Shown piece by piece: positions 8,964 through 64,000 of a DNA stretch of 64,000 bases. Under the pieces are notes generated by a model. The model ran no database searches and had not been told where the DNA came from. It saw only the letters and a list, made by a program, of their open reading frames with translations. The number at the start of each line of letters is the position of its first letter. Positions within the stretch are counted from its first letter, which is position 1. This DNA comes from Escherichia phage saus132. A program made the translations under genes and the position numbers. Location of the stretch: the sequence record NC_047884.1; one strand, 5' to 3'.

Positions 8964-9180
8964 AAAGTGGGAAACAAGGAAGTTTCCCGTAAAAGAACGT
9001 AAAACTTCTGTTTACGATACTGCGGAGAAACTATGTAGGGTTGTACCACCTCGTCTCGCGGGCATCCCTAACGTCTCCATATGGTTACTTAAACAACGGA
9101 AGACTCGTGTGTCTCTTCGCATTGGCTTTGAGTTAGATAAAGTCTATGCTGAACTTGCTTCTTTGCTCAAAGAATCGTAA
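8947..9180 (+). CDS. Hypothetical small protein
   Basis: ORF overlapping end of upstream gene; start set at internal ATG. Confidence 0.35.
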   Translation: MTAKNKKWETRKFPVKERKTSVYDTAEKLCRVVPPRLAGIPNVSIWLLKQRKTRVSLRIGFELDKVYAELASLLKES

Positions 9181-9188
9181 AAATTTAT

Positions 9189-9217
9189 TTGCTTTCAGAA
9201 AAATTTTTCTGTATAAT
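9189..9217 (+). promoter_or_regulatory. PN25-like strong early promoter
   Basis: AAATTTATTTGCTTTCAG-AAAATTTTTCTGTATAATAGATTCATAAATTTGAGAGAGGAG matches the published T5 PN25 sequence (from memory) almost base for base. Confidence 0.8.
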
Positions 9218-9248
9218 AGATTCATAAATTTGAGAGAGGAGTTTAAAT

Positions 9249-9953
9249 ATGGCTGGTTCTCGTAGAAAGAAACTTATCCATGAAATCCCTGATGAAACCT
9301 TTAAAAAGGTTATTGAACATCTAGAGAATGGTGGTACTAAGAAAGCAGCATGTGAAATGCTCGGCGTTTCTTCTAACCCAACTATGGAACGAATGATCGA
9401 GGAATGGAGAGATCGTCAGGTTCAAGTTGCGGAAATGAAAAAGAAGAAGCGCGGAACACTGATTGAAGGTGTTGAGCTTGCAAACGTAATTGAACAGTAT
9501 CTTTCTGGTGATTCTTTTGAAGAAATCGCTGATCGTAATTATCGTTCTGTAGCGATGATTAAATCTGTTCTAGAACGTTACGGTGCTCTGCTTCGTTTAA
9601 ATGATACTGTTGATCCATTGAATCCTCCATTGATTCCTGATGATGCAATGGCAGAGGAATTTGAAGTTGGTGAACTTGTTTGGGTTCCTGGCTATCAGTG
9701 TATTGGTGAAATCAAGAAAGCAATGACTAACCCAGTTGGTTGCTATCGTGTTTGGTTGTTATCAGAAGGTAAACAACAGAACGTTCACTATATGCACTAC
9801 GAATTAGCTTCTGTTAAACATCTGGAAAAGCTGGGAGTTGATGTTAAAGCTCTTGGCTTTAAATGGAGCCGTGAAGAAGTTATCACGTTGGTTAATGAAG
9901 CTGTTAAAGCTGCACTGAAACTCGATAAAGAGAAAGGAAAACGCCGTGAGTAA
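9249..9953 (+). CDS. Putative DNA-binding protein (N-terminal HTH)
   Basis: GGTKKAACEMLGVSSNPTMERMIEEW helix-turn-helix-like segment; directly downstream of PN25-like promoter. Confidence 0.55.
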   Translation: MAGSRRKKLIHEIPDETFKKVIEHLENGGTKKAACEMLGVSSNPTMERMIEEWRDRQVQVAEMKKKKRGTLIEGVELANVIEQYLSGDSFEEIADRNYRSVAMIKSVLERYGALLRLNDTVDPLNPPLIPDDAMAEEFEVGELVWVPGYQCIGEIKKAMTNPVGCYRVWLLSEGKQQNVHYMHYELASVKHLEKLGVDVKALGFKWSREEVITLVNEAVKAALKLDKEKGKRRE

Positions 9954-10200
9954 ACTAACTGATCTGTTAAAAGCTGGAGACGTAAAATATCTCCAGCGAG
10001 ATAGCTGGGAAAATAATACTTATTCTACCACTATCATCAAAGTAGATGTTGATAATAACAACATTATAGAATTTACTTGGTGGTGGTCTAAAGATGGGCG
10101 CACTAAACCCACGCTAGACGATGCATCGTGGAAAACCACTGAGCTAACTCTAGACGAAGCCCTAGCTGACGATTGGGAGATCGTTGAACTAGATGTGTAG
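9946..10200 (+). CDS. Hypothetical protein
   Basis: ORF overlapping upstream stop. Confidence 0.5.
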   Translation: MSKLTDLLKAGDVKYLQRDSWENNTYSTTIIKVDVDNNNIIEFTWWWSKDGRTKPTLDDASWKTTELTLDEALADDWEIVELDV

Positions 10201-24417: not shown

Positions 24418-26236
24418 GACACTAAAATTCAGCAACGTTATGTCTTACGGTAAGGATACCGTAATTCATTTCGATAAGAATCCAGTTACTCAGTTAATCG
24501 GAGGAAACGGTCTAGGGAAGTCCACTATTGCTACTGTTATTGAGGAATTGTTTTATAACAAGAACTCACGTGGTATCAAGAAGGACGCCCTATTCTCTTG
24601 GGGTTCTCCGAAGAAAGAGTATGATATGCATGCTTACTTCTCGAAAGATGAAGATGAGTATGAATTGCATAAAGTAGTTAAATCAACTGCTAAGGTTACA
24701 CTGATTAAGAATGGAGAAGATATCAGTGGACACACAGCAACTCAAACGTACAAGATGATTGAAGAGATTATGGGTGGTGACTTCCAAACATTCACTAAAC
24801 TAATCTATCAATCTGTTGGTTCCAATCTAGACTTCCTCAAAGCAACTGATGCAACACGTAAAGCTTTTCTTGTTAATCTGTTCAATCAGGAACAGTATAA
24901 AGAGATGTCAGAAACTATTAAGGCTGATCGTAAAGAAGTGGCAAGTACGTTAAGTAACTTGCAAGGCCAGATGGCCGTAATTACGAAGATCCTCAATGGA
25001 AAAGGTAATCTCGGAAGTTTACAGGAGCCAGTTGAAGTTCCAGAATTTGATGAAGAACCGTTAGCACAAGAACTTACTGAATCGAAAATTAAGGCGGCAT
25101 TAGCCAAGTCACAAGAGGCTAATATTACTAAACTCCGTAATTTGGACAAAGCTGTACAAGTTGCCGAACAATCTTTCGAGCCTTTCAAAAATTTCCCTGC
25201 GCCCACCGACCAATCTGAAGAGATCTCAAGTGTTACGCGTGACTTAACGATTGTTGCCTCACGTGCGGGAGAAGTCAAGAAACGTTATCAGAAGTTTAAG
25301 CAAGAGGCTTCAAATACTGAATGTCCTACTTGTGGTACGCATCTTGATACAACTGCTGCTCAAAAAGCAATGGATATGGCTAGAACAGAATATGATCCTC
25401 TGTTTAAAGAGAAACAATCTCTTGAAGCTACATTGGAGCAGTTGAAGAAAGAACAAGTCGAGTACACTGCGTATACTAGAGCTAAGGATGCTTTGGATAA
25501 GGCAATAGAAGCTAGGGACGAGTTCAAAAATTCAATGAGTGATGCTTCTTTTGAAGAACTCAATGTGCAAATCCTACAGGTGCAAATCCGACAATTAGAA
25601 CAGGAAATCGCTGATGGCCGTTCTAAAGTTGCAATTGCCAAAGAGCATAATGTAAATGTCGAATTAGCCAATGCAAAATATAAAGCGAAACTAGAACAGA
25701 TTGAAAAAGCTGAGGCAGAAATGTCTGAGATAACGTCCAAACTGGATGGAGTATCAGAAGCTGTTGCTGATCTTGATATTCTGATCGCTGCATTGAAAAA
25801 TCTGGTAGGATATAAACTAGAGCATAGTGTGAAAGTATTTGAGGAATTGATTAATAAATATCTTTCTATTATGACTGGTGGTAAGTTCGCACTTGGATTT
25901 GAACTTGATGAAACTAAATTACAAGTAGTAATCTTCAATGATGGAAACCGCACCAGTATGGAGAACTGCTCTACAGGTCAGCAAAGTAGAATTAACCTAG
26001 CAACTCTGTTAGCAATTCGAATGCTGTTAACATCTATTAGTAAAGTTAATATTAATCTTCTGTTCCTTGACGAAGTTATTAGCTTTATTGATACGAAAGG
26101 ACTTGATACTCTCGTTGAATTATTAAATGAGGAGGATAGTCTGAATTCTATCATTGTTTCTCATGGGCATACGCATCCATTAGCCCATAAGATTACTGTC
26201 AAAAAAGATGCAGAAGGATTTTCCTACTTAGAATAA
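24398..26236 (+). CDS. SbcC/Rad50-like ATPase
   Basis: Walker A GGNGLGKST, CPTCG zinc hook, signature CSTGQQSRINLA, Walker B LLFLDEV; start at ATG 24398 (track start 24323 overlaps SbcD). Confidence 0.85.
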   Translation: MSKIIIKTLKFSNVMSYGKDTVIHFDKNPVTQLIGGNGLGKSTIATVIEELFYNKNSRGIKKDALFSWGSPKKEYDMHAYFSKDEDEYELHKVVKSTAKVTLIKNGEDISGHTATQTYKMIEEIMGGDFQTFTKLIYQSVGSNLDFLKATDATRKAFLVNLFNQEQYKEMSETIKADRKEVASTLSNLQGQMAVITKILNGKGNLGSLQEPVEVPEFDEEPLAQELTESKIKAALAKSQEANITKLRNLDKAVQVAEQSFEPFKNFPAPTDQSEEISSVTRDLTIVASRAGEVKKRYQKFKQEASNTECPTCGTHLDTTAAQKAMDMARTEYDPLFKEKQSLEATLEQLKKEQVEYTAYTRAKDALDKAIEARDEFKNSMSDASFEELNVQILQVQIRQLEQEIADGRSKVAIAKEHNVNVELANAKYKAKLEQIEKAEAEMSEITSKLDGVSEAVADLDILIAALKNLVGYKLEHSVKVFEELINKYLSIMTGGKFALGFELDETKLQVVIFNDGNRTSMENCSTGQQSRINLATLLAIRMLLTSISKVNINLLFLDEVISFIDTKGLDTLVELLNEEDSLNSIIVSHGHTHPLAHKITVKKDAEGFSYLE

Positions 26237-54882: not shown

Positions 54883-55128
54883 ATGTTTAGTTTTGTAGCT
54901 ATCTTCATTATCGGGGTACTTGCGGGAATCTTCGGAACACTCGGGGCTATTAACAAACATCGTGAATATATTGCGGGAGTATCGCGGGAGCTTTCGGAAA
55001 GGGAGCGGAAGTTTGCGGAGAAACGTGCGGAGTTTGAGCGAGAATGGTCTGATGGATCTCGGGCGTCGCGGAGGAGGTTTCGTATGTCAGAATCAGGAGA
55101 CAAGCCAGTAGACCGGTGTTCTTCCTAA
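54883..55128 (+). CDS. Small membrane-anchored protein
   Basis: N-terminal helix FSFVAIFIIGVLAGIFGTLGAI then charged tail. Confidence 0.45.
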   Translation: MFSFVAIFIIGVLAGIFGTLGAINKHREYIAGVSRELSERERKFAEKRAEFEREWSDGSRASRRRFRMSESGDKPVDRCSS

Positions 55129-55243
55129 GTTAGCGCTAATTACCAATTCTCGAAATTTCATAAGATTACACATGCGGGTGGGCCCAGAGGTTCCCCAGAT
55201 GAGAATGAGTCTCATTACCGCCCCGGTACTTAGCAAGCTAATA

Positions 55244-55286
55244 GTCACACCATGTTATCATTACACAGTGTGACTATTTTATTTTT
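55244..55286 (+). terminator. Rho-independent terminator
   Basis: GTCACAC-17 nt loop-GTGTGAC followed by TATTTTATTTTT. Confidence 0.55.
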
Positions 55287-55291
55287 AATTG

Positions 55292-56026
55292 TTAGGCAAC
55301 TTTTAATTTATCAATGAATTGTTGCGGAGTGGTACTATATTCCGCGCGTTCTTCCTCGGTCATACCTTCCCAACACATTTTTAAACGTTCGGCTAGGAAT
55401 TGATAATCGTTATCATCATCAAGCGATTCATCAATAAAGGTTTCACCGATCAATGTTACGCCGATTGATAGGATATCATTAACGGCTTGAGCGTCCAGCG
55501 TTTTAAATCCAGCACTTGCCGCCGCCGATAATACACCTTTATGATCATCAATCATTGTAAAATCAGCGTTAGGATATAGCTGTTTAAACAGTTCAAAGTA
55601 ATAAGATTTATATACAGCGTCTTTGCTGTGATATATTTCGCTAACCTTATTTGCATCAAAGTATTTATGTAATGTATCGCGGGAAAATACGCGAATATTA
55701 CTATTTCCGCGCCCTCGCAAGCCTTGTTTACGCAAATAAAAGTAATCGCTTTTAGACATTAAGCGAGCGGTACAAATAATATTTAAAGTATTTGCATCAT
55801 TCATGCACTGGCGCATATATTCAACCAACGGCAATAAAGAATCCTGCATAATTAAATCATGTTTACAGGCTTCGCGGAAATACTTATTTAAATCTAAATT
55901 CCCGTTATCATCAAAGCAAGGCGCTACACGGTGGAAAGAATTAATGATAGTTCCGTCTAAGTCCCAAATCATAACGCGGGAAATATGCGGGAAAGTGCGG
56001 GTAATATTCATATTGACTTGATTCAT
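55292..56026 (-). CDS. dmp: Deoxynucleoside-5'-monophosphatase (HAD family, T5 Dmp-like)
   Basis: 244 aa; N-terminal MIWDLDGTIIN (DxDGT). Confidence 0.75.
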   Translation of the reverse strand: MNQVNMNITRTFPHISRVMIWDLDGTIINSFHRVAPCFDDNGNLDLNKYFREACKHDLIMQDSLLPLVEYMRQCMNDANTLNIICTARLMSKSDYFYLRKQGLRGRGNSNIRVFSRDTLHKYFDANKVSEIYHSKDAVYKSYYFELFKQLYPNADFTMIDDHKGVLSAAASAGFKTLDAQAVNDILSIGVTLIGETFIDESLDDDNDYQFLAERLKMCWEGMTEEERAEYSTTPQQFIDKLKVA

Positions 56027-56113
56027 TTGTTACATTCTCCATTTAAGGGATTTAGGTTAATTCAATCTTGCCAGCTAATTATATTAGATTAGCTGGCAAT
56101 GTTCAATTAACTA

Positions 56114-56506
56114 TTAATTAGTGAGGCCATACGCTAGCGCGTCACCGATAAAGGAAAGATCTTCACCATGTACGCTAGAACGGATACCCGCGCAAGTGTA
56201 AACCATCGCGCTAGCTTCTGGATTGCAGACCGGACACGGCTTAACAACTGCAAACGCTAGACCGGATTTAAGCGCATCAATAATAATTGTTTGCACTGTC
56301 AAAGTATCAGCGTAAACTCCTTTTGCTTTTGTATGGCTTGCCACTTTGCCGGTATCATAAGCAAAGGTAGTAACCTGCAAAGCGTCGTTATAATTCAGCA
56401 AATCGAAATTAACTTGCCCCGCCTCGACGTGATAACGTTCGCCATTAGAATAAACTAGAACGATGGAAGAAGTAGCACGATCAAAAGGAATGTTTTGGTT
56501 TTTCAT
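56114..56506 (-). CDS. Hypothetical pre-early-region protein
   Basis: ORF with GC-richer codon usage typical of this block. Confidence 0.55.
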   Translation of the reverse strand: MKNQNIPFDRATSSIVLVYSNGERYHVEAGQVNFDLLNYNDALQVTTFAYDTGKVASHTKAKGVYADTLTVQTIIIDALKSGLAFAVVKPCPVCNPEASAMVYTCAGIRSSVHGEDLSFIGDALAYGLTN

Positions 56507-56538
56507 GTTTATGACTCCAGATTATTTAATTACGGGAT

Positions 56539-56817
56539 TTATTGAAAAAATACATTTAAAGATAAATCAGTTTTACGAAAATATGTTTCGTCGCCGTCTT
56601 TCCTTTCTTGATTAAGGTAATCGCCTGTCATTACCTGAATAGAATCTTTTCCGAAAAAGATCATATTTTCGCCAATATTACTATCCCATACGGCATACAT
56701 TCCCGCGTACATTCCACGGGTAACTAAATAAACGCAACTATCAAAAGACATTTCAGACCATGCAATATCTTCTAAACAATTGCTATCAGGGATAGATATA
56801 TTAATTTTACTAGCCAT
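56539..56817 (-). CDS. Hypothetical pre-early-region protein
   Basis: ORF between A1-like and dmp-like genes. Confidence 0.5.
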   Translation of the reverse strand: MASKINISIPDSNCLEDIAWSEMSFDSCVYLVTRGMYAGMYAVWDSNIGENMIFFGKDSIQVMTGDYLNQERKDGDETYFRKTDLSLNVFFQ

Positions 56818-56869
56818 TTAATAAACCTTTTATTAATGGCGGTATATTTCAACCGCCGATTAAATTTAA

Positions 56870-58534
56870 TTATGCAAAGAATTTTCCATTCTTAAAGTCA
56901 ATCAAAGTACGCTGCCCGTTTGCGTATGTAATTAAATGGGTTTGCGTCCAGCTACTAGCGCCAACGTTGTAACCCATATCGAGACTACCAGCAACGCCAG
57001 CGGTATAAACGCCGCCATAAATACTAGCCGTGTGAGTGTGGCCAGTATTGAGGCGTCCCAACTTTTTGAACTGTTTTGGATTGCCCCGACTGCCATTAAT
57101 GCCGTTGTGACCATGAACACCGCATTCAATTCCTGCAATCTTGAAAGATTGGTCAGTGGTTAGGAAAATGGCGTTAAATTCGCAACCTGCAACGTTTCTA
57201 AGCGCGTAATCCAATACGTTAAAGGTATCATCTTGTTTTGCAATAGCTGCATAAATCGCGGCGTTTAGGCTGTGATACAGTTCGGCGTTTGCGGGGTCGT
57301 CTTTAATGTTAGCGTTGCGATCATCAAGCCAACGGGATAACGCCAAATCATGATTGGATTCCACGATGATTGTTTGAGAAAAATCGCGCTCCATTGACTC
57401 CAACACGCGACCGGTATCAATGAGATCGTCAATAACTTTGTCACGTCCGGCGGCGTACTGTTTAGCTAGGAATACACCAGAGGCACGATTATGATGATTG
57501 CGGGATGTAAAATCGTGTACGTCATGGATAAACTGATATTTCGGTTTAAGAATATCAAGCAAGCTATTTTCGCCCACCCATGATGCAACGGCGCAATCAT
57601 CATCTAATTTTTCGGCGTGAATATCGCCATATTGCAAGCCTAAAACATGATCAGATGTTTTGAAACATCCGGTGGGCACAGCGCAAACGTTCAAATCGTA
57701 GAACATCCCGCTTTCGTCCATAGTTTCAAGCTGGCGAACAAAAAATTCTCCGTCGTCGTCAAATTCTACCAGTAAAGCACCGAAATTATGCAGCGCCTCG
57801 GCCTTTTGTCCTGCCTTTTGCTGAATATAGTTTTTAAGTGTAGCCGTTCCGGTGGAGTACATACGGCGCACTACTTCACCTTTTAACGCTGGCACACTTT
57901 CAGCGGTAATTTTTGCGTGACCAATTGCCAGACCTTCGATGTTTAAAGCCGTTGCAGTTTCTGCGAATCCAGAAAGCGGATAATCTGCCGTTGGTAATAC
58001 ATTAATTTCAGCCATGAAAGCAAAACGGCGATTATTCAAAAACACGTTTTTCTCACAAATATATTTATCAAATGCGGGATCATATTTGATTTTTTCGCCG
58101 CCTTCCCCGTTCTGAAATCCGTTTTTGTTGTAAATGAATTTGCTAACAAGTAATTCAGCGCCGTAATAACTAGCGTACTGCTCAAGCGCTTTCAAAAAGT
58201 TTTTATGCGGGAAAGTATTGTTTTGAATCGACGTTAGAATAAAACGGCGACCGGATTTAACTTCCCACTGTTCAACGGTGCTAGAAACAATCCCCGCCGC
58301 TTCTGGGCGATCATCGTTTTTAATGGCTTTTACTGCCTTCGCTGCCTTCGGTTTCGCTGGCTTATTTGCTTCCAACCAGTCACAAATTGCCGTTGAATGT
58401 TTCGGCGTATCATAAACAGCTTTTGAAATATCGTCGCAAACTTCCAATTTAGTAGCGCGTAAACGCTTACCGTAGAAGTTAAAATCTGCGGCCATTTTCA
58501 AAATTTGAGCTTGTTTTTCTGCGGAAATATTCAT
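56870..58534 (-). CDS. A1: A1-like pre-early protein (calcineurin-type metallophosphatase motifs)
   Basis: 554 aa; motifs GDIHAEK, GHNGINGSRGNP, GHTHTASIY; size matches remembered T5 A1. Confidence 0.75.
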   Translation of the reverse strand: MNISAEKQAQILKMAADFNFYGKRLRATKLEVCDDISKAVYDTPKHSTAICDWLEANKPAKPKAAKAVKAIKNDDRPEAAGIVSSTVEQWEVKSGRRFILTSIQNNTFPHKNFLKALEQYASYYGAELLVSKFIYNKNGFQNGEGGEKIKYDPAFDKYICEKNVFLNNRRFAFMAEINVLPTADYPLSGFAETATALNIEGLAIGHAKITAESVPALKGEVVRRMYSTGTATLKNYIQQKAGQKAEALHNFGALLVEFDDDGEFFVRQLETMDESGMFYDLNVCAVPTGCFKTSDHVLGLQYGDIHAEKLDDDCAVASWVGENSLLDILKPKYQFIHDVHDFTSRNHHNRASGVFLAKQYAAGRDKVIDDLIDTGRVLESMERDFSQTIIVESNHDLALSRWLDDRNANIKDDPANAELYHSLNAAIYAAIAKQDDTFNVLDYALRNVAGCEFNAIFLTTDQSFKIAGIECGVHGHNGINGSRGNPKQFKKLGRLNTGHTHTASIYGGVYTAGVAGSLDMGYNVGASSWTQTHLITYANGQRTLIDFKNGKFFA

Positions 58535-58642
58535 AACTAAATCAACTCCTATAAAGGGATAAATATTAATACTGGCAATATTGCCAAATATAACGCCTTA
58601 CCTGAAGTGAGGACAATTTAAAAGGCGTTATAATTTGCAATA

Positions 58643-58888
58643 TTATTCTAGAATTGGCATAAGACTAGAACTAAAACCGCAACTAATAGCCAGCGTTAAA
58701 AATATAATCGCCAGATATTTTTGTTTATTAGCTTGACGTTTAAACATATCAGCGGCATAAGCTGAATTAATGCCGATAATAGAAATTATATATTTGCCGT
58801 AATTAAATATAAATATAGCGGCAACTATAAATAAACCTAAAATAAACGCTTCACTAGGGAAGAAGATCATTTTAATAACTCCGGTCAA
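58643..58888 (-). CDS. Small integral membrane protein
   Basis: Two hydrophobic helices (FILGLFIVAAIFIFNY and YLAIIFLTLAISCGF). Confidence 0.45.
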   Translation of the reverse strand: MTGVIKMIFFPSEAFILGLFIVAAIFIFNYGKYIISIIGINSAYAADMFKRQANKQKYLAIIFLTLAISCGFSSSLMPILE

Positions 58889-58928
58889 AGGGAAATTATA
58901 GCGGGGAATAATCCCCGCTAATTAAAAT

Positions 58929-59345
58929 TTATTCACCTGCGGCCTGTTTTACTTCCTCCGCTACGCCTAACAATTGCGCTACGGCTTCCAGCGTTTCCAG
59001 TTTTGCACTTTCCAGACTTGCCAGATCATCAGCGTCTTTGATAACGCCAGCATCAATGGCATGTTTAGCCATAACGCGCACATAGTGAGCTTTACGGACA
59101 CTAGACCCGCCGCCAACTTTACGCGGTTTATCACTTTTCTGGTACGCTTTTGCGCTTGTCAGTTTAGAACGTACAGAAACAGGGCTTGCAGCGCCAACGG
59201 CGGCGGCAATTTCTTTCAGGCCGTCACTGTTAGCAAATTCAATTCCGCTTTTAGCGACCATTTCAGAATACATAGAAACAGCCTTTTCGGTGTTTTCTTC
59301 GTTCCAAGAGAATTTTGCGGTTTTTTCGGTTTTAACGTTAGACAT
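58929..59345 (-). CDS. Putative A2-like pre-early DNA-binding protein
   Basis: 138 aa ORF upstream of A1-like gene in transcription order; assignment by position and size only. Confidence 0.4.
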   Translation of the reverse strand: MSNVKTEKTAKFSWNEENTEKAVSMYSEMVAKSGIEFANSDGLKEIAAAVGAASPVSVRSKLTSAKAYQKSDKPRKVGGGSSVRKAHYVRVMAKHAIDAGVIKDADDLASLESAKLETLEAVAQLLGVAEEVKQAAGE

Positions 59346-59631
59346 AATTTAATACTCCATTCAATTATTAATTAAGGGATTATGATTAACTAAATGTTAA
59401 TCGCTATATATTCTATTAGCTAGAATATATAACGGAAACATTTTATTTTTATTTCCAGTTTCAAGCGGTTTATTAATTCCCGAATATATTTATATTCTCA
59501 CCTTATCCGGCTTGCCAGAGAATTAATAAGGCAACATTGTATTTATACGCTGTTTATTATTCCGTTCACGCTAGGAATATTTCGAGTTATCTTTATTGCC
59601 TAACTAAGCATGATATGTAAGGCGCATTAAT

Positions 59632-59883
59632 TTATGCGATAGCTTGCCATTTATCATCTTTCTGAATGATTTTTACAACGTCGCCAGATTTAACACGGAC
59701 GTTATAAATAGGCTTGCCGTGGTTACTGCGTTCCGTTTCCGCATAGACCGCTTCAATCTTATCAAAGGGATCAAGCGCCGCACCTTTAATACGTTCGGCT
59801 TTTCCGGTTAATTCATCCGTTTTAGTTACAAAAGGAATGAATACAGATTGACCTACTTTCGGCGCGGTAATAACGTTTTGCAT
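59632..59883 (-). CDS. Hypothetical protein
   Basis: ORF in pre-early block. Confidence 0.5.
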   Translation of the reverse strand: MQNVITAPKVGQSVFIPFVTKTDELTGKAERIKGAALDPFDKIEAVYAETERSNHGKPIYNVRVKSGDVVKIIQKDDKWQAIA

Positions 59884-60047
59884 TTTTAATACTCCGGTTT
59901 ATTGGGGATTATTCCACAATAGCGCCTCGATACTTTGAAACGCTATTAGATTATAATCCGCTAGGAGTTAGCCTAAACATTACCGTTATCCAAATTGTTA
60001 AAGAGCAGTTACTACGGGGAACATCTTAAAACCTATCGGCTAGCGTG

Positions 60048-60257
60048 TCAAGCGTTTTTTAAACTTTTTTCGATTTGATGTGAGTTATATAAATCAATCA
60101 TTATATTACGCCACACCATTTCCAGACCTTGCTGCTTACCTTTCTTGTATTGCTTGAATCTGTATTTTACAGATCTTTGCGCTACTGTCAACAAATTTTT
60201 TGTTCTGCTATCAAGTGACTTGATAGGCTTGCCAGTGATCAAAAGCGTTTGTTTCAT
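60048..60257 (-). CDS. Hypothetical basic protein
   Basis: Lys/Arg-rich ORF; an upstream 52-codon ORF (60260-60418) overlaps its start by ATGA. Confidence 0.45.
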   Translation of the reverse strand: MKQTLLITGKPIKSLDSRTKNLLTVAQRSVKYRFKQYKKGKQQGLEMVWRNIMIDLYNSHQIEKSLKNA

Positions 60258-60749
60258 TTGAGATCCTCCAAAGCATATAAACCATCCCCATCATTGCAGA
60301 TTATTACCGCTTCCGAATGATTAGCATAGTATTCATTTGCAGTCTTTACCCATTGTTCGATTTTTTCGATAGTGTCGTGGGTAGCTGGATGATCGTTAAA
60401 TATTATTGTCATATCGTCGATTCCTTATAATGTATAAGTTTACCGCCGATAGGCTTTAAGATGTTCCCTAGTTTTTAAAGAGCATGGCGGTAAACTTCCC
60501 CGCCGTGTAGTTCGTCATTGCCGCCCTACGTGATAAATATTAGGGGAATACCGAAAAGGGCGCAACCATATTTTTGTAAAGAAACGTAAAGACAAACGCC
60601 ACCGCACCACGTCCAGCGGCGCACTAAATTTAATGAAACGGGCGCGCGAATAACACCAAAACAACCATTTTAGCAAGTAATTTTTTCATTTATATCTGCT
60701 CTAGGGTACTTGACAAAATCTAAAATCCTCGTGGTGAGGTTTTCTCGGT

Positions 60750-60830
60750 GTGCCCCTTATGGTTGCCTATCTTTTCCTTTGAGGCGCTTAGAATGCGTTA
60801 CAGAGCGTTTTAGACCCTGTTAATAACTTA
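60750..60830 (+). repeat. Direct repeat copy 1 (core TTAGAATGCGTTACAGAGCGTTTTAGA)
   Basis: 27-bp core at 60786-60812 identical to 63363-63389, degenerate similarity on both flanks. Confidence 0.85.
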
Positions 60831-60859
60831 TACAAAAAGCAAAAATGAAATTTAATGAG

Positions 60860-61201
60860 TTATCCACTTGATTTTTCAAAAAAGTATTTTCTGCTATTAT
60901 TTTTCATTGACAAATAAGTTTAGACGTGCATTGATTGGTTAGCAGACTAACAATCGCTAGGATGATAATCACGCTGGTGGATTGTAACAGCTGAAACAGT
61001 TAGCAGACTATTAATACTCTAAAAACCTATTAGCCAACTAACTATTTCATATTATATAATATACTTATAAATTAAAGAGAAATAATAACTATAAGAAACT
61101 ATCGGCTAAGTGAGAACCACTATCATTTAGGTTATTCACAAAGTTATCCACAGCACAAAATAACTTGACGCAATAGGCGACGTTTTGGCGACTTATCCAC
61201 A
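60860..61201. promoter_or_regulatory. Cluster of DnaA-box-like 9-mers
   Basis: TTATCCACT at 60860; TTATCCACA at 61144 and 61193; weaker GGTGGATTG at 60976. Confidence 0.6.
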
Positions 61202-61247
61202 GACTTATATACAGGTTATCCTACTGTATAAATATACAGGGTAGAAT
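61192..61247. repeat. Left arm of long inverted repeat (contains DnaA box and palindrome CTGTATAAATATACAG)
   Basis: About 90 percent identical to reverse complement of 63418-63472. Confidence 0.85.
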
Positions 61248-61519
61248 GGTAGCAGTAACAACCGCAATCAAATTTAAGCGGCCTAGAACACGCTATACGG
61301 CGTTTTCTCACTGCTACCCTTATTATAATAAAGCCTTGTGTACGCTTACAGAGAACTAGAAATAGAAAACGCGCGGCAATGGAAGCGGCAATGTTGGAAA
61401 TGGTACAAAGTTTCAATATTGCTGAAATGATCGATGAAATGGTAAAAGGTATTGACATTTCAACCTTTACCCAAAATGCTGAAAGCGAGTAATAATTAGT
61501 CTAATGTAAAGTTTTGTAA

Positions 61520-61546
61520 AGGTCGCCCTAATCGGCGGCCTTTTTT
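61520..61546 (+). terminator. Terminator-like hairpin
   Basis: GGTCGCC-ctaatc-GGCGGCC followed by TTTTTT. Confidence 0.45.
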
Positions 61547-61548
61547 GT

Positions 61549-61554
61549 TATAAT
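61549..61554 (+). promoter_or_regulatory. Extended -10 promoter element
   Basis: TGtTATAAT followed by RBS TAGGAGG and ATG 61612. Confidence 0.4.
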
Positions 61555-61611
61555 GCCTTTACACCGAAACGGTGGATTGAAAATTTTCCCCTGATTTCTA
61601 GGAGGCGTTAA

Positions 61612-61839
61612 ATGGTACATTCATCATCTTCTGCAATTTTTAACGGTATGGAATGGGTATCCGTTCCCGCTATTGTCAGCGTTATGGTTTCTGAGTTCGG
61701 CATAGGTAAAACTTATGTTACCATTCAGGGGCTTTACGACAATGACAAGATTGACCAGCAAACCGCCGGATTTTTGCTGGATGAATTGAAAGCTAACCAT
61801 TGCACTAAAAAGCAAGCGGCAAAAATTGTTTTAATGTAA
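61612..61839 (+). CDS. Hypothetical small protein
   Basis: RBS context ATTTCTAGGAGG. Confidence 0.55.
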   Translation: MVHSSSSAIFNGMEWVSVPAIVSVMVSEFGIGKTYVTIQGLYDNDKIDQQTAGFLLDELKANHCTKKQAAKIVLM

Positions 61840-61885
61840 TTATTAAAGGGGATATATTATCCCCTAATTTCTAGGAGCTAATAAA

Positions 61886-62035
61886 ATGGTTATTTTTCGA
61901 TCTATTCTGGCTAGTATCTTGGGCGCTATTTTATCGTTGTTTGCAATAGCTTTCGGTGTTCATGCCGTTATTATCGGAGCAGGTATCGCGGGGTTTTCTT
62001 ACTTGTTAGGCTGTATGACTGGTAAAGGGGAATAA
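61886..62035 (+). CDS. Small membrane peptide (49 aa, below ORF-track size cutoff)
   Basis: RBS context ATTTCTAGGAG; hydrophobic ILASILGAILSLFAIAFGVHAVIIGAGIAGF. Confidence 0.4.
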   Translation: MVIFRSILASILGAILSLFAIAFGVHAVIIGAGIAGFSYLLGCMTGKGE

Positions 62036-62037
62036 AA

Positions 62038-62250
62038 ATGTTAAAGAATGTTTCCCTTGCCCGTTCCAAAGGTTTTAAGCTGGTGGATGTTAACACGTTC
62101 GAGCGTCCAGATTGTAAAATTGAATATGTAGCACGCAACAAAAACGCTTTCCGTGTCACTGAAAAGAAATTTGACAAGCGCGGCAATTTGGTAGCCGAAA
62201 CGGTTAAACACTTTGCCACTTTTTACGCTGCATTTCGTGGGGTATTATGA
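62038..62250 (+). CDS. Hypothetical small protein
   Basis: ORF in tightly packed operon. Confidence 0.5.
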   Translation: MLKNVSLARSKGFKLVDVNTFERPDCKIEYVARNKNAFRVTEKKFDKRGNLVAETVKHFATFYAAFRGVL

Positions 62251-62387
62251 AAACTTTATTTTCTATTTTGCTCGGTGCTGCTGGTGGCTTTATTGCTACC
62301 TGCTTTAAAAGTGATCCTGCACTGTTAGGCGTTTATTCGATTTGTTTTGGCTATTTGCTAGGGAGGCTGGCAGATGGTTATTTATGA
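62247..62387 (+). CDS. Small membrane peptide (46 aa, below ORF-track size cutoff)
   Basis: MKTLFSILLGAAGGFIATCF...; start overlaps upstream stop. Confidence 0.35.
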   Translation: MKTLFSILLGAAGGFIATCFKSDPALLGVYSICFGYLLGRLADGYL

Positions 62388-62718
62388 GGGCAATCGCTTT
62401 GTTACTAATTGCCGTCCGGCATTATTAGCAAACTATTTAAACCAGCTTTCACCAGTTTATAAAGGCGTAATTAATATCTATGAGGGCAAAGCACATTATA
62501 AGATTAATGCCATTGTTGCCCGTGAACTAGCGTTTCAATTTTTAACTTTTGGATCTTGTGACGTTCAGGTTATGGGGGAAGCGTTAATAGCAGAAAATGA
62601 AAATGAATTTATCGACATTTTCCGCAAAGTATGTACAGAGCGCCTGATTATGAAAGGCGCGTATATTCAATCAACCGCTGAAAGTATAGAAACAGCGTTT
62701 CGAAAGGTGGCGCAATGA
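62374..62718 (+). CDS. Hypothetical protein
   Basis: ORF in operon. Confidence 0.55.
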   Translation: MVIYEGNRFVTNCRPALLANYLNQLSPVYKGVINIYEGKAHYKINAIVARELAFQFLTFGSCDVQVMGEALIAENENEFIDIFRKVCTERLIMKGAYIQSTAESIETAFRKVAQ

Positions 62719-62912
62719 CTAAAGATGAAGCACTAGAAAAAATGAAACAAGGTTTCAAAGTTCGTCAAGAATACTTCACTAGTGAGGAATTTTTGTACAT
62801 GAAAAATGGCGTGATCATGTCAGAAGATGGATATACTTTTAATGACTGGTTTTTCAAGATTACCCCTGCTACACGTTGGAAGCTAGACGGTTGGAGCGTC
62901 TACCGTGAATAG
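62715..62912 (+). CDS. Hypothetical small protein
   Basis: ORF overlapping upstream stop (ATGA). Confidence 0.5.
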   Translation: MTKDEALEKMKQGFKVRQEYFTSEEFLYMKNGVIMSEDGYTFNDWFFKITPATRWKLDGWSVYRE

Positions 62913-63035
62913 CTGGTGGCGAAAAACACAAAGCCATAAATCTAATAATACCGCTGGGAAACATTCCCAGCGTTTACGATTTAGTAGCGGGCTTGTAATG
63001 GTAATAATAATCATTCTCATTCTAGGAGCGATGGC

Positions 63036-63275
63036 ATGGCTGTAAGAATTTTACGATATGTGGAACGTAAAGAAACCGATATTATGCAACATCATTTAAC
63101 TGATGCGCAATACGCGCAATTTTTAGAAATGCAGAAAAGCGGAGCTGATACGGCAACGCTAGGAGCGTGGATCAACTCAGTTTCAACGTGTACGCATTTT
63201 GATTCATACGGGTATACGCCAGCCGAAACCGTCCAGATCTTTGATGACTACGAGAAAGAATACATAGCAGACTAA
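63036..63275 (+). CDS. Hypothetical small protein
   Basis: RBS TCTAGGAGCGATGGC-ATG; followed by terminator. Confidence 0.55.
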   Translation: MAVRILRYVERKETDIMQHHLTDAQYAQFLEMQKSGADTATLGAWINSVSTCTHFDSYGYTPAETVQIFDDYEKEYIAD

Positions 63276-63281
63276 TAATAA

Positions 63282-63309
63282 CGGGGCGCAACTATCGGCC
63301 CCGCTTTTT
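63282..63309 (+). terminator. Rho-independent terminator
   Basis: CGGGGC-gcaactatcg-GCCCCG followed by CTTTTT. Confidence 0.6.
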
Positions 63310-63324
63310 CTGGCCTTCCTCAAA

Positions 63325-63405
63325 TTTCCCCTTATTAAAATACCTCCTCCAAAAATAAACGCGTTAGAATGCGTTACAGAGCGTTTTAGAGCTATATTAG
63401 AGTTA
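63325..63405 (+). repeat. Direct repeat copy 2 (core TTAGAATGCGTTACAGAGCGTTTTAGA)
   Basis: 27-bp core at 63363-63389 identical to 60786-60812. Confidence 0.85.
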
Positions 63406-63417
63406 TTCACTACGCAG

Positions 63418-63472
63418 GAATACTGTATAAATATACAGTAGAATAACCTGTTGATAAGTCTGTGGATAACGC
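63418..63472. repeat. Right arm of long inverted repeat (contains DnaA box TGTGGATAA and palindrome)
   Basis: Reverse complement matches 61192-61247 at about 90 percent; further GGTGGATAA at 63522. Confidence 0.85.
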
Positions 63473-63562
63473 CTCAAAATCGCTAGGATTTTGTCAAGTC
63501 AAATCGTGCTGTTAATAAACCGGTGGATAACTTAAATAACAGTGTTTCTCACTTCGCTTTGT

Positions 63563-63706
63563 AAATGCGAGTCACTCTCATTATCATTCGCGTTTCCCTT
63601 CCTAAATGCAAATCATTCTCATTCGTATTCCGGTAGTCAAATGATAACTATTCTCATTCGCATTCAACTTCTCAAATGCGAATCAATCTCATTATCATTT
63701 GCATTT
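63563..63706 (+). repeat. Iteron array 1: four tandem ~36-bp units each containing an inverted pair AAATGCGAAT...ATTCGCATTT
   Basis: Units start at 63563, 63604, 63639, 63674. Confidence 0.8.
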
Positions 63707-63743
63707 CGGCAGGCAGGGCATTTTCTATTTGCCCTGCGCTTTT

Positions 63744-63966
63744 GTGCAAATCCGACATTTGCCCCCACGGATTACGTGCCAGCGTGCATGTGCGAATCCG
63801 ACAATTTTTGGTAGTGTGCAAATCCGATGGCAAATATTTTTTATATGTGCGAATCCGACAATGAATTTTCCTAAAAACTCCAGCAATCCGCAACTGCGAT
63901 GCAATCCAGCTGGGTTTACTAGAGTATGTGCAAATTCGACAAGTGTTAAGGTGTGCGAATCCGACA
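63744..63966 (+). repeat. Iteron array 2: six same-orientation copies of GTGCRAATYCGAYR (array may continue beyond window)
   Basis: Copies at 63744, 63790, 63816, 63847, 63929, 63953; shares core TGCGAATC with array 1; perfect hairpin GCAGGGC/GCCCTGC at 63713-63737 between arrays. Confidence 0.8.
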
Positions 63967-64000
63967 AGATTTTTGTGACTTCGATGAGAGGGTGTGTGAT

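Follow-up and report, generated by a model that had tools for sequence, protein, structure and literature searches.

A probable T5-type injection stop signal at the inner end of the right terminal repeat of Escherichia phage saus132

The 3′ end of the DNA analyzed here, a 64,000-nt stretch from the Escherichia phage saus132 record NC_047884.1 (referred to below as the window), carries two adjacent repeat arrays that are almost certainly part of the right-repeat copy of the injection stop signal (iss, or "Repeat Region 3") of the T5 phage family. The best overall explanation, to which we assign a probability of about 0.88, is that the region is a non-coding, modular, cis-acting iss element. It occupies the inner end of the ≈9-kb terminal repeat, in which the pre-early genes lie. 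Read from the left, its modules are a palindrome resembling a LexA box, two DnaA box pairs, a palindromic array (array 1), a GC-rich hairpin with the putative nick motif CCCTGCGC, and an array of DRD repeats (array 2) that reaches the end of the terminal repeat and extends past it. This feature has been annotated in GenBank records of T5 and named in the literature, so the repeats themselves are not new.

Position and identity of the repeat region

The window starts at position 57987 of the record, and its last base is the final base of the 121,986-bp deposited sequence. An earlier note on the same DNA, made from the sequence alone, had placed the arrays at the 3′ edge of the window; this edge is thus the deposited end of the genome and not an arbitrary cut, and the window holds the copy of the element that belongs to the right terminal repeat (window positions 55284–64000). 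The element is duplicated, and the window holds its right-end version: over the final 3,701 bases of the window, the sequence agrees completely with that of the left repeat. Positions 63300–64000 matched MF431736 and its siblings (five "Bacteriophage T5-like" genomes, Epseptimavirus saus132) with 100% identity, within the terminal repeat. The pause in DNA transfer would occur on the identical left-end copy, and the right-end copy in the window does not perform it.

Upstream of the repeat region, in the same terminal repeat, lie dmp, A1 (56870–58534) and A2 (58929–59345), the last of which matched phrog_1725 ("DNA binding protein") in a PHROG search. The region follows these genes at the untranslated inner end of the repeat, as in the iss of the T5 family, with the last ORF ending at 63275. 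Its left edge is marked by a terminator-like hairpin (Table 1) that is homologous to the annotated T5 terminator at 9275–9296. Counted from the start of the terminal repeat at 55284, the region is situated 8.3–8.7 kb into the repeat, which bears out the position of the T5 stop that the earlier note had given.

When aligned with T5, the region matched positions 9287–10009 with 79% identity (79.3%) over 97% of its length, and the same architecture could be followed base by base. In the T5 GenBank entry (NC_005859), this stretch falls under two features, "injection stop signal (iss)" (misc_feature 9140–10149) and "major DNA single-chain interruption" (major nick at 9748/9749). The homologous stretch in the record of Salmonella phage S114 is labelled "similar to DNA injection stop signal", and conservation of the region extends to at least 536 phage records. 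Its modules occur in the same order in the Klebsiella, Proteus and Vibrio relatives. The injection-stop reading, which the earlier note had offered as one of several equal possibilities, is therefore supported by the homology to the T5 iss, by the S114 label and by the presence of A1, A2 and dmp upstream in the same repeat.

The elements of Repeat Region 3 have been listed in the order palC, palD, IRD′, DRE1, DRB, IRC′, DRE2, DRC1, palE, DRC2-3, palH, palG, DRC4, palI, palJ, nine DRD and DRA (Davison 2020, bioRxiv 10.1101/866236). On the basis of this order, array 1 corresponds to the DRC/palindrome block (palE–palI), the hairpin to the last palindrome and array 2 to the DRD series. According to the account in the same preprint (10.1101/866236), the repeats and DnaA boxes of the region were first shown in a study from 1987. 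Besides the position downstream of A1 and A2 at the inner end of the terminal repeat, T5 and the window phage share the succession of paired DnaA boxes, palindromic units, a GC palindrome with the nick GCGC and nine same-strand DRD, and the first DRD spacings (46/26/31) are identical. There are also differences between the two. The window phage belongs to the genus Epseptimavirus, unlike T5. Its array 1 consists of four units whose half-sites are AAATGCRAAT, whereas T5 has more units, with AAATGAGAAT/AATACGAAT; its hairpin has a 9-nt loop, whereas that of T5 is the perfect palindrome GCAGGGCAATTGCCCTGC; and its deposited repeat stops ≈210 bp earlier than the T5 repeat.

Table 1. Features of the repeat region and its partner module, in window coordinates.
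Feature	Position	Strand	Remarks
Inverted partner module (IRC-spacer-IRD)	61132–61241	+	DnaA-type pairs 61132/61144 and 61193/61205; LexA-like palindrome 61222–61241
Terminator-like hairpin and T-run	63282–63309	+	Closes the last pre-early ORF (63036–63275); −7.3 kcal/mol
LexA (SOS) box look-alike palindrome, TACTGTATAAATATACAGTA	63421–63440		One mismatch to the E. coli consensus, at a central position
DnaA/DnaA*-type box pairs (IRD′-spacer-IRC′ of Davison)	63449–63457 and 63461–63469; 63510–63518 and 63522–63530	−	3 bp within each pair
Array 1, four units, imperfect inverted pairs of AAATGCRAAT-type half-sites	63563–63703		Repeat and folding analysis
GC-rich hairpin/palindrome, 8-bp stem GCAGGGCA/TGCCCTGC, 9-nt loop	63713–63737		ΔG −9.3, z −3.2
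Predicted major nick motif, CCCTGCGC	63732–63739	−	Homology to the T5 7.9% nick and to the right-repeat copy of that nick
Array 2, six DRD, 14-nt core TGTGCRAATCCGAY	63743–63965	+	Starts at 63743, 63789, 63815, 63846, 63927 and 63952

Organization of the arrays and the upstream module

The four units of array 1 described in the earlier note were borne out, with starts at 63563, 63604, 63639 and 63674 (spacing 41/35/35) and a unit length of 35–41 bp; Tandem Repeats Finder reported a period of 35 with a score of 96. An inverted pair is present in all four units, but the perfect pair AAATGCGAAT/ATTCGCATTT that had been ascribed to each is not: the inverted arms match at 8, 7, 6 and 9 of 10 positions in units 1–4, respectively. 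As single-stranded DNA, the array folded far better than shuffled sequences (z = −4.9). The number of units differs by whole-unit indels among close relatives, and Proteus phage Stubb has about one unit. At the same position, Vibrio phage VCPH carries about ten 15-bp units, each with the palindrome GCAAC-T-GTTGC, and Vibrio phage Chester has tandem units of the AGAAGTCTAGATGGAT type. Taken together, these comparisons indicate that some array is always present and often palindromic, with a sequence that is specific to the lineage. The A2 proteins of the window phage and VCPH are 33% identical, a divergence that is compatible with co-variation of A2 and array 1 but proves nothing.

The hairpin between the arrays lies at the coordinates originally given for it, but its stem was found to be 8 bp long, rather than 7 bp. 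All seven Markadamsvirinae that were compared retain the stem. The motif CCCTGCGC occurs exactly twice in the window, both times on the + strand: once in the hairpin and once at 25195–25202, the homologue of the T5 64.8% site, in D13. By homology, the nick in the hairpin is predicted to fall on the minus strand between 63739 and 63740, the bases homologous to the annotated T5 nick at 9748/9749. The major nicks annotated in T5 follow CCCTGCGC at 7.9%, 18.5% and 32.6%, and GCCCGCGC at 64.8%. In Proteus phage Stubb, the terminus assigned by PhageTerm lies exactly at the nick motif. In every enteric lineage, the first DRD follows the nick GCGC at a distance of 4–5 nt; this includes Stubb, which has no other copy. 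The idea that DRD generally accompany nick sites was considered and rejected, since there are none near the T5 18.5% and 32.6% nicks.

Array 2 was described as six copies in the same orientation at irregular spacing, and exactly six copies of the 12-nt core GTGCRAATYCGAYR were found there, all on the + strand (63744, 63790, 63816, 63847, 63928 and 63953). The whole 64-kb window has seven matches to this core, compared to 0.03 expected. When the array was extended beyond the window by way of the left-repeat copy, three more DRD were found in the adjacent DNA; the total of nine same-strand DRD after the palindromes corresponds to the number in the T5-family iss. The spacings (46, 26, 31, 81, 25, 67, 276 and 35) are irregular and show no helical phasing. 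In the reconstructed 122-kb genome, DRD are confined to the regions around the two repeat ends and to one pair within D13, without exception on the + strand.

Conserved across genera, the DRD core is a 14-nt site with sharp boundaries that always lies on the same strand: for the 59 copies taken from seven phages, information content was ≈2 bits across TGTGCRAATCCGAY and collapsed outside of it. The first three spacings are kept in Tequintavirus and Epseptimavirus. Klebsiella phage Sealy has 9–10 copies, with spacers that no longer align with those of the window (48% identity, versus 81% for the cores), and Stubb has about one. The array spans the repeat end, with its last copies in unique DNA, an unexpected arrangement for a signal that does nothing but stop transfer. 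The DRD appears to be an asymmetric, oriented site that is coupled to the nick and straddles the terminus.

A core sequence common to both arrays had also been proposed. The exact 8-mer TGCGAATC is indeed present in unit 4 of array 1 and in three DRD copies, but the remaining copies are variants, and array 1 of T5 has ATGAGAATC/ATACGAATC in its place; consequently, the shared core is not conserved. We considered the possibility that one ligand binds both arrays through this core and rejected it, as the core is conserved neither in T5 nor in the Vibrio phages.

The module just to the left of array 1 is the most conserved part of the region. It combines the candidate DnaA boxes with the LexA-like palindrome, and the DnaA part is still 90% identical over 49 nt in Vibrio phage VCPH. 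As in the T5-family iss, the DnaA/DnaA* boxes form pairs 3 bp apart, with an inverted partner upstream (61132–61213). The partner module as a whole, including its own LexA-like palindrome, sits in the central non-coding region of the terminal repeat, and an IRC-spacer-IRD module has been described in the literature as the partner of the iss module. There are six exact TTATCCACA boxes in the 122-kb genome, all of them within the terminal repeats, in agreement with Davison's emphasis on the DnaA boxes. A search for the IHF consensus gave one match overlapping a DnaA* box (63444–63456), with a window-wide count at the level of chance (7 vs 5.5 expected).

Compared with the 16-mer CTGT-N8-ACAG consensus TACTGTATATATATACAGTA, the LexA-like sites have one mismatch at 63421–63440 and three at 61222–61241; none are expected by chance. 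The palindrome is conserved in T5 and in the Klebsiella, Proteus and Vibrio relatives, and two of the eight enteric phages have a substitution in its CTGT/ACAG arms. It resembles the LexA operators of gamma-proteobacteria and prophages in that its single mismatch is central and that an identical 18-mer precedes DinI-family genes elsewhere. It differs from them in occurring in a virulent phage, beside DnaA boxes and without a clear promoter or downstream gene, and is a candidate LexA site by its sequence. Only weak promoter-like matches overlap 63421–63440, and there is no obvious target gene.

The 18-mer itself was found in more than 120 viral contigs, most of which are not T5-like. In several unrelated prophage-like contigs, it lies ≈21 nt upstream of genes of the DinI family (PF06183, E = 1.9e-17), a classic SOS gene. 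Some other genes downstream of the 18-mer looked UmuD-like, an identity that was set aside because it lacked confirmation by Pfam; the DinI class alone was confirmed. LexA and SOS are not mentioned in Davison's preprint (10.1101/866236), and within the literature open to full-text search, no paper was listed that combined "LexA" with a T5-related term.

Repeat ends and alternative explanations

The earlier note had stated that no ORF covers the region. Mechanical ORFs of 62–90 aa do cross it, and some GenBank records annotate hypothetical proteins here. The conclusion that the region is non-coding nevertheless stands: a Pfam and PHROG search of the four mechanical ORFs across the arrays gave nothing above threshold (one sub-threshold match was to Myticin-prepro, at 18.4 bits versus a cut-off of 28.5 bits), the frames and extents of the ORFs are not conserved between relatives, and the indels are whole repeat units. 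The T5 reference gives no CDS in the region, and an Rfam search at E ≤ 1 produced no match there, so that small proteins or a structured RNA encoded by the region are hardly credible. An iteron-type replication origin, in which an initiator would bind the direct repeats next to DnaA boxes, is very unlikely, and this alternative in the earlier note found no support. A cluster of DnaA boxes does adjoin same-orientation direct repeats in non-coding DNA, as in the plasmid and phage-plasmid origins P1 oriR, pSC101 and RK2 oriV. However, the 14-nt DRD cores are spaced 25–276 bp apart without phasing, compared to ≈17–22 bp for regular iterons (≈22 bp in origins of the P1 oriR, pSC101 and RK2 oriV type). 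No AT-rich unwinding element abuts the repeats; the GC content is 0.33–0.51 across the arrays, and the 80-nt stretch of lowest GC (0.26) is ≈230 bp beyond the last DRD. There is no adjacent initiator gene: none of the six flanking ORFs has a Rep-like Pfam domain, a weak argument, as most have no match of any kind. A megablast search of 63300–64000 against PLSDB showed no similarity to plasmids, which argues against a plasmid-type origin. Moreover, each genome has two copies of the element, one in the terminal repeat at either end, and the T5 origins have been mapped elsewhere, near the genome center, according to the account given by Davison 2020 (10.1101/866236). Somewhat less remote, but still improbable, is a transcriptional boundary, in which operators and terminators would keep pre-early transcription in the repeat separate from the convergent early genes and the repeats would bind a regulator of the temporal switch. 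The region does sit between the last pre-early ORF and oppositely oriented early genes, promoter-like hexamer pairs are enriched (9 vs 2.9 expected), there are hairpins with a T-run behind them, and elsewhere the LexA-like palindrome is a genuine operator-type sequence. Yet the promoter matches are weak (9/12) and lie in AT-rich repeats, and nine same-strand 14-mers over 600 bp are untypical of operators.

The most serious rival, which we regard as unlikely but which is compatible with the iss reading, is a role of the DRD in forming the terminus. Instead of or besides stopping injection, the DRD array and the nick site would serve as a terminase or nickase platform that makes the right end and duplicates the repeat. 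Five records (T5, EscoHU1, vB_SenS-3, Sw2, the latter by PhageTerm, and Stitch) have their repeat end 470–475 bp to the right of the nick, with DRD on both sides, and four of these share the junction ...GTGGCTC/TAAAAACTC, with 5–6 DRD before the end and 2–3 after it. From these repeat ends, the deposited end of the window genome is probably ≈210 bp short of the true terminus, and the window region would lie within ≈0.2–0.7 kb of the physical right end. In addition, the records of Vibrio phages VCPH and Chester end just after or inside the equivalent arrays. The 4–5 nt that separate the first DRD from the nick GCGC in all enteric lineages also fit a packaging role, as does the location of the sole DRDs elsewhere, 362 nt downstream of another major nick motif. 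DNA that is packaged last is usually ejected first, so the right end would be packaged first, which counts in favor of this rival. A likeness exists to the arrays at concatemer junctions of phages with direct terminal repeats, where short direct repeats flank the repeat boundary near the genome end; T7, for example, has pac signals and short repeat arrays beside its terminal repeat. However, the repeat measures ≈9 kb here compared to 160 bp in T7, and the window arrays are found only at the right boundary: at the left boundary, which is the other cut site, the search of 55284 ± 1500 yielded chance 10-mers and no DRD-like repeats. The nearest DRD are ≈190 bp before and ≈86 bp after the consensus terminus and hence not at it, and the T5 18.5% and 32.6% nicks have no nearby DRD. 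Binding of terminase to the window arrays is hypothetical, and no recognition site for the T5 terminase was found in the literature. Finally, the annotated repeat ends disagree among records: they lie exactly at the nick in T5 st0 and in Stubb (PhageTerm) and elsewhere in Kenya-K20 and MF431736. The assignments at GCGC may be artefacts of the nick.

Stop and restart of DNA transfer

In T5, DNA transfer halts at ≈8% of the genome, and its restart requires A1 and A2, the sole essential pre-early genes. A1 is a predicted metallo-phosphatase-type nuclease that is both essential and sufficient for host DNA degradation, while A2 is a predicted DNA-binding protein that has been described as a DNA-binding dimer required for restart. 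Two-step transfer was shown for T5 and BF23, not for the genus Epseptimavirus; in the window phage, a halt at ≈8% that is released by A1 and A2 would be expected by homology. In vitro, ejection of T5 DNA into receptor-bearing liposomes or into solution can be complete, and pauses have been reported close to nick positions. In the classical assay, first-step DNA is recovered from infected cells treated with chloramphenicol, from which we infer that the halt needs no phage protein synthesis; the stop factor would then have to pre-exist, either as a host protein or as a component of the virion.

According to the injection-stop reading, transfer would halt at ≈8% on the left-end copy until A1 and A2 let the remainder of the DNA enter. 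The halt might be imposed by host DnaA, and possibly LexA, on the conserved upstream module and/or by a pre-existing factor on the DRD. For the palindromic units of array 1, whose sequence varies with lineage, we favor a dimeric phage protein, A2, as the ligand, which would act in the restart step. It is quite likely, judging from their sequence, that the arrays are protein-binding sites. Their variation with lineage suggests that they more probably bind phage-encoded proteins. The specific proposal that array 1 binds A2 is a tentative one, and we would not expect it to hold more often than it fails.

That the stop is determined by arrays 1 and 2 themselves is also rather doubtful. They are the least universal parts of the region, with about one unit of each in Stubb and different sequences in the Vibrio phages, and if two-step transfer is a family-wide process, arrays this variable cannot be what determines it in every member. 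As a universal stop element, the strongest candidate would be the family-wide module with its host-type sites, the DnaA boxes and the LexA-like palindrome. Two copies of this module, inverted relative to each other, occur in the first-step DNA, and the module is conserved from E. coli phages to those of Proteus and Vibrio. Davison likewise favors the DnaA-box module to the left of array 1 as the stop element (10.1101/866236). In a more specific version, the universal stop core would be a landing pad for host proteins in place before the DNA arrives, formed by the near-consensus LexA box and the two DnaA pairs, to which the arrays would be lineage-specific accessories, array 1 for A2 and the DRD coupled to the formation of the nick and terminus. 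In its entirety, we give this version only a small chance of being correct.

An equally small chance is given to the model of cleavage and restart put forward by Davison, in which DnaA at its boxes would hold the DNA at the membrane until A1 and A2 cut a palindrome to the right, either in array 1 or in the hairpin, freeing the DNA and allowing circularization with the right repeat. Palindromes are abundant exactly in this region, the predicted activities of A1 (metallo-phosphatase) and A2 (DNA-binding) suit such a reaction, and the old observations in support of the model have been set out in the literature. On the other hand, the model is hypothetical and no specific cleavage has been reported; the palindromes of array 1 are imperfect and variable in number; and most of the repeats are given no role, as Davison states (10.1101/866236).

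The two-step delivery of T5 DNA has been known since the 1960s, and the element described here bears on the mechanism by which it stops and restarts. The comparison also yielded the 14-nt DRD tied to the nick motif, the lineage dependence of array 1 and the LexA look-alike in the conserved upstream module. The existence of two classes of published repeat ends, at the nick and ≈470 bp beyond it, matters for the annotation of T5-like genomes. If LexA does take part, degradation of the host DNA driven by A1 would lead to activation of RecA and cleavage of LexA, which could help to time the end of the pause.

LexA-like palindromes and DnaA boxes in the terminal repeats

Across the whole reconstructed 122-kb genome, the exact DnaA box (TTATCCACA) occurs six times: each terminal repeat contains three copies, and the 104.5 kb separating the two repeats contains none. 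Each DnaA-box module of the right terminal repeat is adjoined by a near-consensus look-alike of the LexA (SOS) box (see table). This palindrome is kept across E. coli, Proteus and Vibrio phages, and an identical 18-mer sits before DinI-family genes in unrelated prophage-like contigs; no mention of it was found in the searchable T5 literature. The pattern for the integration host factor, IHF, also matches here, and was observed seven times across the window, versus 5.5 expected, which corresponds to chance frequency.

Features of the window outside the main direct-repeat array
Feature	Position	Strand	Sequence	Remark
LexA box look-alikes	63421-63440 and 61222-61241		TACTGTATAAATATACAG(TA/GG)	One adjoining each DnaA-box module
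IHF consensus match	63444-63456	-	TATCAACAGGTTA	Overlaps first DnaA* box, between LexA-like palindrome and DnaA pair
Second nick motif	25195-25202		CCCTGCGC	Sole copy besides that in the injection stop signal region (iss); homologous to the major nick annotated at 64.8% in T5
DRD-like tandem pair	25564-25592		TGTGCAAATCCTAC + GGTGCAAATCCGAC	Sole DRD-like copies outside iss
Short repeats, then hairpin	54984-55044 and 55243-55279		GCGGAG/GCGGAA type	Just left of right-repeat start (55284)
65-aa pre-early ORF	62715-62912	+		Sub-threshold Pfam match to Tad2-like (Thoeris anti-defence 2) domain

Nick motif and direct repeats in D13

The homologue of the 64.8% nick falls within the D13 gene, which encodes an SbcC-like exonuclease, and the pair resembling the 14-nt direct repeats of iss (DRDs) follows 362 nt downstream. 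Both are kept in T5 (at 1574 and at 1936/1951, respectively, of the T5 stretch L140). No DRD lies close to the T5 nicks at 18.5% and 32.6%. The proximity in D13 may be a coincidence, or it may reflect a link between DRDs and nicking.

Boundaries of the terminal repeat

The hairpin near the start of the right repeat has a 10-bp stem (ATAGTCACAC...GTGTGACTAT), and a T-rich run comes after it; together with the short repeats, this hairpin could be a left repeat-boundary signal or a plain terminator.

At the right end, published positions disagree among T5-like records. The deposited terminal repeat is 8,717 bp long and ends at 64000 (MF431736 121986), while the repeat end of five other records (GTGGCTC, then TAAAAACTC, with the end between them) lies ≈210 bp beyond it (3701 vs. 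3910 in L001, the left-repeat copy). In the T5 st0 and Proteus Stubb (PhageTerm) records, the repeat ends exactly at the nick motif GCGC. Some published ends may be nick artefacts. At L001 3884-3960, just past the homologue of the window end, the consensus end falls inside a promoter-like TTGACA-N18-TCTAAA element that is followed by a GGGCC-TTCG-GGCCC hairpin, and around it recur TCCTAAAAACT-type repeats, which are probably Davison's DRA.

A pre-early ORF

The Tad2-like match had an E-value of 0.0025, and its score of 18.8 bits fell short of the 25-bit cut-off. By this domain similarity, the 65-aa ORF, one of the pre-early genes, may have an anti-defence role.
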